Shown here piece by piece: positions 27,331-32,110 of a DNA stretch of 64,000 nucleotides; the first letter of the stretch is position 1; the number at the start of each line of letters is the position of its first letter. A program made the position numbers and the translations under genes. The notes beneath the pieces were generated by a model. The model was not told the origin of the DNA. It worked only from the letters and a program-made list of their open reading frames with translations, and searched no databases. Source of the DNA: Escherichia coli (GTDB taxonomy: Bacteria; Pseudomonadota; Gammaproteobacteria; Enterobacterales; Enterobacteriaceae); NCBI RefSeq assembly GCF_003334385.1, contig NZ_QOWN01000003.1. One strand, 5' to 3'.

Positions 27331-27852
27331 ATGAAACGTTTTAGTCTGGCTATTCTGGCGCTGGTTGTTGCAACCGGCGCACAAGCTGCCAGTGAAAAAG
27401 TCGAGATGAACCTCGTCACGTCGCAAGGGGTAGGGCAGTCAATTGGTAGCGTCACCATTACTGAAACCGATAAAGGTCTGGAGTTTTCGCCCGATCTGAA
27501 AGCATTACCCCCCGGTGAACATGGCTTCCATATTCATGCCAAAGGAAGCTGCCAGCCAGCCACCAAAGATGGCAAAGCCAGCGCCGCGGAATCCGCAGGC
27601 GGGCATCTTGATCCACAAAATACCGGTAAACATGAAGGGCCAGAAGGTGCCGGGCATTTAGGCGATCTGCCTGCACTGGTCGTCAATAATGACGGCAAAG
27701 CTACCGATGCCGTCATCGCGCCTCGTCTGAAATCACTGGATGAAATCAAAGACAAAGCGCTGATGGTCCACGTTGGCGGCGATAATATGTCCGATCAACC
27801 TAAACCGCTGGGCGGTGGCGGTGAACGCTATGCCTGTGGTGTAATTAAGTAA
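27331..27852 (+). CDS. sodC: periplasmic Cu,Zn superoxide dismutase
   Basis: 173 aa from MKRFSLAILALVVATGAQA signal peptide; His-rich Cu/Zn ligands (GFHIHAKG...GGHLDPQ). Confidence 0.9.
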   Translation: MKRFSLAILALVVATGAQAASEKVEMNLVTSQGVGQSIGSVTITETDKGLEFSPDLKALPPGEHGFHIHAKGSCQPATKDGKASAAESAGGHLDPQNTGKHEGPEGAGHLGDLPALVVNNDGKATDAVIAPRLKSLDEIKDKALMVHVGGDNMSDQPKPLGGGGERYACGVIK

Positions 27853-29865
27853 TTAAGAGGCCAGCGTACCTTGCGGTGGTGCTTGCTCAAGTTGCGAAAG
27901 CGAGCAGTACAGCCGCCAGACAATTGCCGCCAGCTCACGGGCGGCAGGTTGATGATGACGGGCAAGGCTGTCGCAAATCCGCTGTAATTCTTCAAGTGTG
28001 GCCGCCAGTGATTTTTGCTGAACGCCACGCTCACTCATCACTCCCCGCAACAGTGAAATACAGTTATCCCGTACTCGCGATAACGGATCGGAACGCGATT
28101 CCCAGTCGCGCAATTGCCAGACAACATGAGAACAGTTCAGCAGCACTACACCCCAGCGTAATAACCAACGGCGAGCCAGCGCATCCTGGCTGTTACTCAA
28201 CTGACTGACGTGATGATAAGTGAGCGATTCAAATTCGCTTTCACTCAGTGTTGGATGGCGGCTTAGCTGATCGACAAAATCCCGGCGCAGCGCGCGAATA
28301 TGGCGGCGGCTTTTACGAGCATCCGATCCTGGACGCAGAATGGCGAACTCTAACCACGCCAACGCGACGCCAACGATTTTTGCCAGATTCTCGTTAAGAA
28401 AATCAGCAAAATCATACACCGGGGGATTAGTGACAGCGATAAAAGAACCCATAAAAACAATCAGTTGCCCCCACAATGCGGCAAATTTTGGCATCTGCAA
28501 TTTAAGAAGCTGCATTGTCGCCAGCAGTGGAAAGAGAAACAGTAAAAATTGCCACAGATCGCTAATCTGGACCATCAGACCAAATTTGACCACAAAGCTG
28601 AATAGCGAAAGTAACACCAGCGTGCGCATCAGAAGTGACAACGACTTAAACGGTGCTGCGACGGCGGAGTAGAGTACGCAGCTAATTGCTGCCAGCGTTA
28701 ATGCATTGGCACCGGCATCCCATTGCGAAGCAATACTCCATGCGCCAATCATCATCAACGTACAAAATGTACGCAGCCCGCTCCACATAGCTTCGGCGTT
28801 ATCGGTATGACGAGCCAGGCCGGATGTCCGTGGGAGTCTGGTATGATCATCTACACCGCTTTGCAGACGATGTAATTCCTGACTACTTTGCAGATAAAGG
28901 CGGCAAAAATAACGTAGTCGCTGCCAGAAGGCGACGTGCCGATAGTCGGCGACGTTGGTCGGGCGTAGCGGGGCGATAATACGTGCGACGGTGTAAACAT
29001 CTGTTTGCGAACTGGCGAGCGCCGTCAGCAACTGTTCGAGAATTTCTCGTGTGGCACCTGGCGGTGAGGGCCAGTTGAGCAACATACGTCGCAGGCTGGA
29101 GATGACACTGGTCATACGTAATTGCTGGTGGAGCAGCGCATTAAGGCGCGCGTTTTGCTGGCGAAAACGATAGTGGCTCCAGAAAGCCTGGATACGCAGC
29201 AAATTCATGGTCAGTATCTGCCCAATCACCCCTTCATGTGCTGCACGAATGGCATCGGTTGTTTCAGGCTGCCAGAGTAAACTGGCATGTTCCAGTAATC
29301 GGGCGTGCATGTTTTTCAATGCGGTTAAAAGGGCAGTAGCATCGGAACTGCTCGGCAGGATCATCATCATCATGCCGCCGCACAAAATACCGACTATTAC
29401 CTCGCAAACGCGCGCCTGAGCGATATCCCACAGCTGGCTGGCCTCAGTAATATTAACCATCGGAAAGGCGATGATGGCAGCCGTGTAGCCCGCCAGTTGA
29501 AATGCATACGCGACGTTATTCGTGAAGTGCGCACAGGCCCAGGTACAAAAGCCAAGCCACGCCGACATGCTCAATAGAAAAAACCACGGCTCATTGAGCG
29601 TATGCCCGGCAAGAAGCAGTGCCGCAATGGCTCCGAGCAAACTGCCAGCGATGCGTCCGAGGCTTTTGCTGATAACACCGCCAACGGTGGGAAAGCTAAC
29701 CACTGCAGCCGAGGTCATCGCCCAATAGGGTTCATCCAGATTTAAATAATAGGCAACCGTCAGCGCCAGACACATGGCAATGGTATTGCGTAACGCATAA
29801 CGCCATTGCGCCAGCGTGGCCCTGAACCAGGGCAAATTGCGCAAGGACCATGACGATGCGTTCAT
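27853..29865 (-). CDS. ydhK: FUSC-family (AaeB-like) inner membrane efflux component YdhK
   Basis: 670 aa; start overlaps ydhJ stop by 1 nt. Confidence 0.85.
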
Positions 29866-30722
29866 TATTGACCTACGGCAATGCTACAGGTGGTGCCCGA
29901 CACCAACGTGACATCGCCTGGGACTTTATCCAGCGCAAAGCGGACGGGAACGCGTTGGGCGAGTCGAACCCAGGGGACGTTAGGTTTAACATCCGGAATA
30001 AGGCTTGAGTCACTTTCAACGCTCTGATCATAAATCGCCCGACCGATACTGGAAACGTGACCCTGTAACGTTTTGTTATCACTATAGAGGGTAATTTGTG
30101 CTGGTGCACCTTCGCGGATATGGCGCAACTTGGTTTCTTCAAAATAACCAATGACGTAAAACGAGTGGCTGTCGACAAGGGCAAACAGCGGTTTCCCGGT
30201 ATCAGCGTAATCGCCGATGCGGGTAGTAAGGTTAGTCACCCATCCACTCACCGGGGCGCGAATTTCCGTTTGCGCCAGTTGCCATTGTGCCTGTTTCAGC
30301 GTCGCCTGTGCGGCATCAACACTGGCCTGCATCGCTTTAACATTGAGGTTAGCGGTATCGAGTTCTTCGGCAGAAATAAAATTTTGTGAGAGATGACGAC
30401 GACGATTCGCTTCGTTATTGGCTTTTGCGAGGTCAGATTGCGCTTTCGCCAGCTGAGCCTGTGCGTTCAGCTCGGCGATCTGAAAGGGCGTTTTATCGAT
30501 CGTGAGCAGAAGATCCCCCGCGTTAACCAGCTGGTTGTCTTTTATATTCAGCTCAACAATACGTCCCGACACCTGTGGGGTGATAGAAACCTGTTCTGCG
30601 CGTATTTTCCCGTCGCGTGTCCACGGAGATTGCATGTAATAATTCCACAGCCACCATCCGGCAAGAACCGCAACTACCGCTACAATGATTGTTGAGAAAT
30701 ACTTAATTGTTTTAATTGACAT
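29865..30722 (-). CDS. ydhJ: HlyD-family membrane fusion protein YdhJ (AaeA-like)
   Basis: 285 aa from MSIKTIKYF; track ORF 29865..30764 is extended upstream. Confidence 0.85.
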
Positions 30723-30724
30723 AG

Positions 30725-30961
30725 TTACCACGCAATCAGTATTGCCAGAGCAAGGCAAACGCAAATCGCAAACAGCGATAAATCCATTAACAAGGGATGC
30801 CAGATGTCACCGGCGTAGATCCAGCCACGAAGCAGGCGGTGTACGACAAGCCAGATGACGAATCCAAACGCGAATGCTTTGAAAAACGGAGGAAAGTAGA
30901 CGGACGCACCGAACACCAGATCTTGTAAGGGCAATCCTGTTGCATTGAGCATAAACTTCAC
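30725..30961 (-). CDS. ydhI: DUF1656 small membrane protein YdhI (AaeX-like)
   Basis: 78 aa, two predicted TM helices; first gene of ydhIJK, divergent from slyA. Confidence 0.75.
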
Positions 30962-31133
30962 AAAGTAGATTCCTTTACGACCGAATATATTGCGTTAGAT
31001 TAATAAATATTCTTTAAGTGCGAAAAATTTACGCGCAATTTCTGAAAAATATGTCTGACGGTAACCAAATGCAGCAATACATTTGTTTTAGCAATACAAT
31101 TGCTGCACACTATTCTAAAAGCCGCATAATATC

Positions 31134-31145
31134 TTAGCAAGCTAA
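31134..31145. promoter_or_regulatory. SlyA-binding palindrome upstream of slyA
   Basis: Perfect 12-bp palindrome TTAGCAAGCTAA ending 11 bp before the slyA ATG; related repeat AGCAAT-ACA-ATTGCT at 31090-31104. Confidence 0.65.
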
Positions 31146-31155
31146 TTATAAGGAG

Positions 31156-31596
31156 ATGAAATTGGAATCGCCACTAGGTTCTGATCTGGCACGGTTGGTG
31201 CGCATATGGCGTGCTCTGATAGACCATCGCCTGAAACCGCTGGAGTTAACACAAACCCATTGGGTTACGTTACACAATATCCATCAGTTACCTCCAGACC
31301 AGTCGCAAATTCAACTGGCAAAAGCGATTGGCATCGAGCAGCCATCACTGGTCCGTACTCTGGACCAACTGGAAGAAAAAGGGTTAATTTCGCGTCAAAC
31401 TTGTGCCAGCGATCGTCGGGCTAAACGTATTAAACTGACGGAAAAGGCAGAGCCGCTGATCAGCGAAATGGAAGCTGTTATTAACAAAACCCGCGCGGAA
31501 ATATTACATGGCATCTCCGCAGAGGAACTGGAGCAACTGATTACGCTCATCGCAAAACTTGAGCATAATATCATTGAGTTACAGGCCAAAGGGTGA
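31156..31596 (+). CDS. slyA: MarR-family transcriptional regulator SlyA
   Basis: 146 aa from ATG (alternative TTG at 31162 gives 144 aa); winged-helix MarR fold sequence. Confidence 0.95.
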
Positions 31597-31642
31597 AATG
31601 AAGGGGGCGTGTGGTCAGTAACCTGACCACACGCAAACTTAT

Positions 31643-32110
31643 TTAGCGCGGAGAAACGGTCACCTGACTGCCATTGCTGGCCAGTACGACACGTTGGCCC
31701 GGAGAGAAACGAGTGTTGCCTTGTTTCTGTACCACCATGATGGTATTACCATCGTCTTTACGAATTTCCAGCTCGACACCCTGCGTTTTGTTCATTGCAC
31801 TCTGTACGCCCTGACCAGCTACGCCACCTGCAACAGCGCCTGCTGCAGTAGCCAGAGAACGCCCGGTTCCGCCACCAACAGTATTCCCCAGGAAACCACC
31901 AAGAACAGCACCGCCAATTGCACCGATAACGTTGGAATCATCACCGCCCTGAATCTGTACCGGACGTACGTTAACGATGGTGCCATAGCTGACATTCTGT
32001 ACTTGTTTCGCTTCAGAAGCGGTATAAACATCCCCTGACAGGGTGTCGTTATTAACACAACCGACAAGAGACAGACCTACCATTGAAACAACCAATACGC
32101 GTTTAATCAT
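31643..32110 (-). CDS. slyB: outer membrane lipoprotein SlyB
   Basis: 155 aa, lipobox LVGC, Gly-rich region. Confidence 0.9.
   Translation of the reverse strand: MIKRVLVVSMVGLSLVGCVNNDTLSGDVYTASEAKQVQNVSYGTIVNVRPVQIQGGDDSNVIGAIGGAVLGGFLGNTVGGGTGRSLATAAGAVAGGVAGQGVQSAMNKTQGVELEIRKDDGNTIMVVQKQGNTRFSPGQRVVLASNGSQVTVSPR

Follow-up and report, generated by a model that had tools for sequence, protein, structure and literature searches.

The window analysed here is a 64,000-nt stretch of Escherichia coli contig NZ_QOWN01000003.1 (NCBI RefSeq assembly GCF_003334385.1), in which slyA, the gene of a MarR-family regulator, lies divergently from ydhIJK, an operon for an efflux-like system. We conclude that slyA and ydhIJK likely form an ancestral unit of enteric bacteria, in which a MarR-type regulator is placed next to a pump and controls it by the mechanism proposed below. 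The arrangement, the binding of SlyA and its regulation of ydhIJK are already known from the literature, and their rediscovery adds nothing beyond it. Our locus is the one studied by Curran et al. (2017, PMC5797941) and by Will et al. (2019 and 2025, PMC6401476, PMC12506092), and the published K-12 locus agrees with it in the 200-bp fragment, in the TTAGCAAGCTAA and TTAGATTAATAA sites and in the divergent layout, with zero sequence difference. Positions 27700-31700 of the window match E. coli K-12 MG1655 with 100% identity, and a genome search found this stretch in all 5426 of 5426 complete E. coli genomes.

The spacer between slyA and ydhI was scanned for the published SlyA consensus, which gave one exact copy, TTAGCAAGCTAA, and two weaker boxes (operator A, boxes B and C in Table 1). 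The exact sequence occurs once in the window, where 0.02 copies are expected by chance. Because the same pattern with two mismatches allowed is not enriched in the window (4 found against 5.0 expected), it is the exact match of operator A and its position that carry weight.

For comparison, slyA loci of Enterobacterales were gathered by a conserved motif in the slyA coding sequence, which avoids selecting for the spacer, and one locus was kept per species. The sample held at least 120 loci, and all counts here and below are among the loci listed. An exact TTAGCAAGCTAA is present in 62 of 116 other loci, and 106 of the 116 have [TC]TAG-N4-CTAA equally far from the slyA start, including species without ydhIJK. 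In all Enterobacteriaceae loci but three (with a single mismatch each) the operator is exact and its centre lies 22 bp from the start codon. Among Yersiniaceae, Erwiniaceae and Pectobacteriaceae its form is [TC]TAG-N4-CTAA at the same distance, even where ydhIJK has been lost, and the operator is absent in Providencia, Moellerella and Pantoea stewartii. Changes cluster in the central 4 bases and the outer TTAG/CTAA arms are kept, as predicted for a dyad site bound by protein. Moreover, ydhI and/or ydhJ divergently adjoin slyA in 90 of the 107 loci with a flank long enough, with clear absence of ydhIJ in the other 17 (Pectobacteriaceae, some Erwiniaceae, Morganellaceae). The SlyA box that the original prediction had placed in the shared region is thus borne out by the exact copy at 31134-31145, whose position is kept across families.

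Two further observations came from this survey. In Pantoea stewartii (L013), Kosakonia oryziphila (L078) and Kluyvera genomosp. 3 (L086), ydhJ and ydhK are decaying and only fragments are left, and Pantoea stewartii has lost the SlyA box upstream of slyA as well. In Erwiniaceae (e.g. L021, L044, L070, L075), the operator variant CTAGCAAGCTAA lies inside a near-perfect 18-bp palindrome, GCTTGATAGCTAGCAAGC, about 20-40 nt upstream of slyA, which is not present in Enterobacteriaceae.

The spacer had been given a length of 194 bp, counted to an ATG at 31156. This figure has to be corrected to 200 bp (30962-31161), since the annotated and experimentally supported start of slyA is the UUG codon (TTG) at 31162; this UUG start has been shown by experiment to limit SlyA synthesis (PMC3173223). 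The NCBIfam SlyA model begins to align at residue 3 of the longer open reading frame (ORF, 146 aa), and in Erwiniaceae slyA starts with an ATG that is one base closer, whereby the 'ATG' in GGAGATG falls out of frame. The G+C content of the spacer is 31.5%, against 50.8% for the window, and 5406 of 5426 E. coli genomes carry the spacer with an identity of 99% or more. In alignments across Enterobacteriaceae, the ~95 bp next to slyA hardly vary, and the ~100 bp next to ydhI are hypervariable and unalignable between genera except for the ydhI ribosome-binding site. The same two-part conservation has already been described (PMC6401476) and is reproduced by our alignments; box C lies within the genus-specific, non-conserved half. 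A 31-nt sequence, TTAGCAAGCTAATTATAAGGAGATGAAATTG (31134-31164), which comprises the operator, the Shine-Dalgarno sequence and the UUG codon, is essentially invariant in all of the Enterobacteriaceae genera sampled, and its conservation exceeds that of the slyA coding sequence after it.

That the regulator controls both itself and the pump, as originally proposed, is supported mostly by published work, namely electrophoretic mobility shift assays (EMSA), in vitro repression, RNA sequencing (RNA-seq) and kvrA mutants. E. coli SlyA shifts the 200-bp slyA-ydhI fragment of MG1655 in EMSA with an apparent dissociation constant of ~50-100 nM, and the candidate sites named there lie 22 bp (TTAGCAAGCTAA) and 161 bp (TTAGATTAATAA) upstream of slyA (Curran et al. 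2017, PMC5797941). Salmonella SlyA represses ydhI ~19-fold and slyA ~5.3-fold in vitro, and this repression is relieved by 2 mM salicylate (Will et al. 2019, PMC6401476). The release by salicylate was documented by in vitro transcription, footprinting and a co-crystal, with the promoter of Salmonella and not of E. coli, and the salicylate-sensitive footprint covers a 12-bp site that is 75% identical to the consensus and near the ydhI -35 (PMC6401476). By RNA-seq, ydhIJK is among the SlyA-repressed genes (Will et al. 2025, PMC12506092), and in Klebsiella without the SlyA orthologue KvrA, YdhJ is increased from 45-fold to >100-fold (bioRxiv 10.1101/845925). The checks suggested with the original prediction are therefore found in the literature: EMSA was done with E. 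coli SlyA and footprinting in Salmonella, and expression in slyA mutants and susceptibility were determined mostly outside E. coli (Salmonella, Klebsiella). As for the substrate, which had been called unknown, growth of a Salmonella ydhIJK mutant is delayed by fusaric acid at 30 ug/ml, and that of a slyA mutant is improved (PMC6401476). Tolerance to fusaric acid is thus shown in Salmonella, and the earlier statement holds for the physiological substrate of YdhIJK, which is still unknown according to Will et al. 2025 (PMC12506092).

In the mechanism that we propose, a SlyA dimer would bind the 200-bp spacer, with TTAGCAAGCTAA as the main site and the 9/12 boxes at 31088-31099 and 30995-31006 as weaker ones. 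Bound SlyA would lower the transcription of slyA and ydhIJK, a sign that we infer for E. coli. Aromatic carboxylates such as salicylate would bind SlyA, free the DNA and derepress the pump. The products of ydhI, ydhJ and ydhK, translated off one tightly coupled transcript, would build an AaeXAB-type paralogue, with YdhK as the inner-membrane exporter, YdhJ as the periplasmic adaptor and YdhI as a small membrane protein. This system would export aromatic carboxylic acids, of which fusaric acid is the one shown (in Salmonella).

The ORFs and the annotation agree with the original placement of ydhK, ydhJ and ydhI and with the divergent orientation of slyA, and Pfam confirmed all three domain assignments (DUF1656, HlyD-type, FUSC). 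YdhK matches FUSC (PF04632, E = 3e-139) over residues 20-661, with 658 of 660 model positions covered; YdhJ, encoded immediately upstream of ydhK, matches HlyD_D23, Biotin_lipoyl_2 and HlyD_3 and has one N-terminal membrane helix (hydrophobic segment, residues 8-26); YdhI matches DUF1656 (PF07869, E = 1.8e-14) and has two hydrophobic segments (predicted helices). SlyA itself scores 277.4 bits against the NCBIfam SlyA equivalog NF002926 (cut-off 120), over residues 3-145 of the 146-aa ORF. The gap between ydhI and ydhJ is only 2 nt, and the stop codon of ydhJ overlaps the ATG of ydhK by 1 nt (TAATG), which fits a single, translationally coupled ydhIJK transcript. By annotation, an outer-membrane factor gene is absent from the operon and from its neighbours (sodC, ydhF, slyA, slyB, anmK), so that YdhIJK does not qualify as a tripartite pump as commonly understood; the word 'tripartite' applies to three genes in an aaeXAB-like order and not to a complete pump encoded there. 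YdhIJK might use TolC in trans.

The top NCBIfam models are AaeX for YdhI (21.4 bits, cut-off 82), AaeA for YdhJ (243.4, cut-off 400; the next matches are MdtN and EmrA) and AaeB for YdhK (119.3, cut-off 870). All of these scores are far below the NCBIfam equivalog cut-offs, hence YdhIJK are paralogues and not orthologues of AaeXAB; the proposed likeness to the aaeXAB architecture is retained in this form. Both operons have the gene order DUF1656 small protein, HlyD-type adaptor and FUSC/ArAE transporter, and neither includes an outer-membrane factor gene. The aaeXAB operon (yhcRQP; p-hydroxybenzoate efflux in E. coli) is under the control of a divergent LysR-type protein, AaeR, and not of a MarR-type protein. 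Aromatic carboxylates are handled by both systems, and the published identities are 34.1% for YdhJ/AaeA and 21.1% for YdhK/AaeB (PMC12506092).

With respect to regulation, the locus resembles the marRAB and emrRAB-type units, where a small winged-helix dimer on palindromic operators in its own promoter region controls efflux, and phenolic or aromatic acids, salicylate among them, cause its release. Here the regulator gene is likewise adjacent to the pump genes, and the shared 200-bp control region holds the pseudo-palindromic operator TTAGCAAGCTAA and two 9/12 boxes, with binding known from the published EMSA. There are also differences: slyA is divergent from the pump instead of being the first gene of its operon, the SlyA operator is retained even where the pump is lost, and counter-silencing of H-NS has become a large second role of SlyA (PMC6401476, PMC5797941).

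For YdhK alone, a sequence search of solved structures gave no match, and no FUSC-family structure was found by sequence; a profile of 27 YdhK sequences hit only GmALMT12 among solved structures, over the first membrane domain and non-significantly (E = 0.87). An AlphaFold (AF2) model was built from 27 orthologues (predicted local distance difference test score, pLDDT, 80.5; predicted template modelling score, pTM, 0.70), which predicts two bundles of membrane helices, with a helical soluble domain after each. In a Foldseek search with this model, the nearest solved folds were plant ALMT1 and ALMT9, with probability 1.00, a TM-score of 0.44-0.51 when normalised to the ALMT chain, an identity of 14-16% and a modest best E-value of 3.8e-3. 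The fold alignment spans ~370 columns, with one ALMT chain corresponding to roughly half of YdhK. The model suggests that YdhK may be a fused two-module organic-anion conduit of ALMT-like type. Internal duplication of the YdhK sequence was considered and rejected, since profile-profile comparison of the two halves detected no mutual similarity (probability 0.6%). Like YdhK, the plant ALMT/QUAC anion channels (AtALMT1, AtALMT9, GmALMT12) act on organic acid anions; they differ in functioning without a periplasmic adaptor.

Candidate promoters were assigned on both sides of the operator. A scan of the region for sigma-70 promoters found fewer promoter-like sites than shuffled sequences (2 against 5.1), hence the assignments rest on conservation and not on the scan. 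The candidate for ydhI has its -35 in operator A; its -10 is nearly invariant, as is the complement ATTCTAAAAT in Enterobacteriaceae; if used, this promoter would imply a leader of ~144 nt. The candidate slyA -10 lies so close upstream of operator A that it would place the transcription start inside the operator, and no good -35 was found for it. One bound SlyA dimer could thereby block both promoters. In addition, a candidate sigma-E-type promoter for ydhI was read in the genus-specific half, where it overlaps box C. The window shows no excess of its pattern (6 found against 5.7 expected), and this candidate was kept only as a lead motivated by the literature, as ydhIJK is listed with a sigma-E-dependent start site and its RNA is increased 20-fold upon sigma-E induction (PMC7075262).

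Besides operator A, the original prediction had pointed to a second palindrome as a SlyA box, AGCAATACAATTGCT (AGCAAT-ACA-ATTGCT) at 31090-31104, for which 0.25 occurrences are expected at no more than one mismatch. It is nested in larger repeats, TGCAGCAAT-N20-ATTGCTGCA at 31070-31107, and a direct repeat, AGCAATACA, starts at 31073 and 31090. Of the 116 other loci only 3 have the perfect dyad, which is essentially confined to Escherichia; outside this genus the block around it is conserved as sequence and reads GGCAATAYAAATGCT. In an alignment of 56 sequences, the central pair of AGCAATACAATTGCT is unpaired in 46, and 64-78% of the cells pair in three alternative inverted repeats. Pair-count measures for the three helices (changes on both sides, further pair types) were not above the shuffle control. 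On these pairing values, an RNA hairpin or conserved dyad was rejected as a conserved structure. The block is most economically read as a weaker SlyA box; the earlier claim would then hold for the overlapping 9/12 box B and not for the dyad symmetry, which is not conserved outside Escherichia.

We consider it unlikely that the AGCAAT palindrome is not a SlyA site at all and instead serves another regulator as operator or forms a hairpin within a long leader RNA of slyA or ydhI. Strong conservation of the surrounding block, CATTTGTTTT..AATAYAAATGCTGCACACT, in Enterobacteriaceae would agree with this possibility, as would the alternative inverted repeats that different species carry, the third candidate helix (77.7% of cells paired) and a degree of two-sided variation (17 cells, a value that 0 of 500 shuffles reached). 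However, the pairing described above is low in every helix, with the central pair mostly open and the pair counts within the shuffle control, and Rfam has no family match here. Moreover, the block holds a 9/12 SlyA-like box, and the footprint in the Salmonella spacer gave a SlyA site that is 75% identical to the consensus (PMC6401476).

Several points weigh against slyA-ydhIJK being a unit of repressor and pump in E. coli. When SlyA was overproduced in E. coli K-12, ydhIJK was increased 2.2-fold and slyA 3-fold, and deletion of slyA caused no change in the chemostat, where SlyA was undetectable (PMC5797941); these are the only E. coli K-12 expression data that we found, and their direction is opposite. 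The title of Corbett et al. 2007 (cited in PMC5797941) likewise gives E. coli slyA as positively autoregulated. Data on aromatic carboxylate export or fusaric-acid tolerance by ydhIJK were found in the literature for Salmonella and none for E. coli, and the promoter positions in E. coli, including which box controls which promoter, are inferred and not measured. As ydhIJK is also driven by sigma-E, SlyA is not its only input. Finally, the operator persists in species without ydhIJK, so that it may belong first to slyA, for autoregulation, and only secondarily to the pump.

The opposite direction in K-12 would be explained if E. coli SlyA acted as an activator or anti-silencer, which displaces H-NS from the AT-rich spacer and raises both slyA and ydhIJK. 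Besides the overproduction data and the title of Corbett et al. 2007, this explanation can draw on the low G+C content of the spacer, on the ydhIJK region being flagged as H-NS-associated in one dataset (PMC5797941) and on the genus-specific ydhI-proximal half, by which the wiring in E. coli could differ from that in Salmonella. Yet the increase is small and was obtained by overproduction only, and by the same title slyA expression does not depend on H-NS. In Salmonella and Klebsiella, with which E. coli shares the slyA-proximal block, the pump is strongly derepressed when the regulator is lost, and the consensus box is placed as a repressor site would be, over the candidate -35 and just downstream of the conserved TATAAT. 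We therefore hold the anti-silencer explanation to be rather improbable. Far less probable still is that the motifs are incidental in an AT-rich spacer and that ydhIJK is essentially a sigma-E envelope-stress operon with slyA as a chance neighbour. The sigma-E start site with its 20-fold response (PMC7075262) and the lack of enrichment of the two-mismatch SlyA pattern would be in line with this, but a chance origin hardly fits an exact 12-mer with 0.02 copies expected per window and a position fixed across families, nor the adjacency of slyA and ydhIJ in 90 of 107 decidable loci, and direct binding and regulation by SlyA have been published (EMSA, in vitro transcription). The reading of slyA-ydhIJK as a regulator-and-pump unit is thus preferred.

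Table 1. Genes, SlyA boxes and candidate control elements of the slyA-ydhIJK locus (window coordinates).
Feature	Position	Strand	Basis and description
sodC	27331-27852	+	RefSeq annotation moved to window coordinates
ydhK	27853-29865	-	ORF and RefSeq annotation; 670 aa, inner-membrane FUSC/ArAE-family transporter; last gene of operon
ydhJ	29865-30722	-	RefSeq annotation; 285-aa HlyD-type periplasmic adaptor (membrane fusion protein)
ydhI	30725-30961	-	RefSeq annotation; 78-aa membrane protein, DUF1656, AaeX-like; GTG start; first gene of operon
slyA-ydhI divergent control region	30962-31161		200 bp, by annotated gene ends
SlyA-like box C	30995-31006		TTAGATTAATAA; fits TTA-N6-TAA, 9/12 on the other strand; ~40 bp upstream of ydhI start
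Candidate sigma-E-type promoter, ydhI	30995-31021	-	GCACTT-N16-TCTAA, read from sequence; overlaps box C
SlyA-like box B	31088-31099	+	TTAGCAATACAA; consensus scan, 9/12 to consensus; overlaps palindrome AGCAATACAATTGCT
Candidate sigma-70 promoter, ydhI	31112-31140	-	-35 TTGCTA (in operator A), 17-nt spacer, -10 TAGAAT; scan 9/12
Candidate slyA -10	31125-31130	+	CATAAT (E. coli) or TATAAT (most Enterobacteriaceae); 3 nt upstream of operator A
SlyA operator A	31134-31145	+	TTAGCAAGCTAA, exact consensus, motif scan; centred 22 bp upstream of slyA UUG
slyA	31162-31596	+	RefSeq annotation; 144-aa MarR-family winged-helix regulator, UUG start
Hairpin, likely terminator	31607-31634	+	Terminator scan; 12-bp stem, 8 G-C pairs; between convergent slyA and slyB
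slyB	31643-32110	-	RefSeq annotation moved to window coordinates

Some observations concern the borders of the locus and the rest of the window. The stop codons of the convergent genes sodC (+) and ydhK (-) abut at 27850-27855 (TAA/TTA on the strand shown) with zero intergenic bases, which leaves no room for a terminator, and therefore each transcript must end within the other gene. At the other border, the G+C-rich hairpin between slyA and slyB is probably a shared bidirectional terminator. In two clinical E. coli strains (NZ_CP091756.1, NZ_CM128543.1) the match to the locus is split in two with an IS3-family transposase between, and the adaptor is annotated as two fragments (HlyD-family and biotin/lipoyl-binding), consistent with an interrupted ydhJ. 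As ydhJ is apparently interrupted in some clinical E. coli, the pump would be dispensable in those lineages. An Rfam scan of the whole window gave no match in or near the slyA-ydhIJK locus; its matches elsewhere were two tRNAs (5325-5398 and 5406-5479, both on the - strand), HPnc0260 (5198-5360) and the small RNA STnc550 (14071-14461).

The separate lines of evidence can also be joined into one more specific picture, which we regard as possible and still doubtful as a whole. One invariant operator would gate two overlapping divergent promoters, YdhK would be an ALMT-like conduit and not a conventional antiporter, and the endogenous aromatic acid exported by the pump would also be the natural ligand of SlyA, so that the unit works as a feedback valve. 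The Escherichia-specific half of the spacer, with box C and the sigma-E-type promoter, would then lie behind the apparent difference in response between E. coli and Salmonella.

In Salmonella, Yersinia, Klebsiella and E. coli, virulence genes are under the control of SlyA/RovA-family regulators. The pump linked to SlyA/RovA is thought to be their ancestral target, and it thereby offers a clue to the natural ligand of these regulators.

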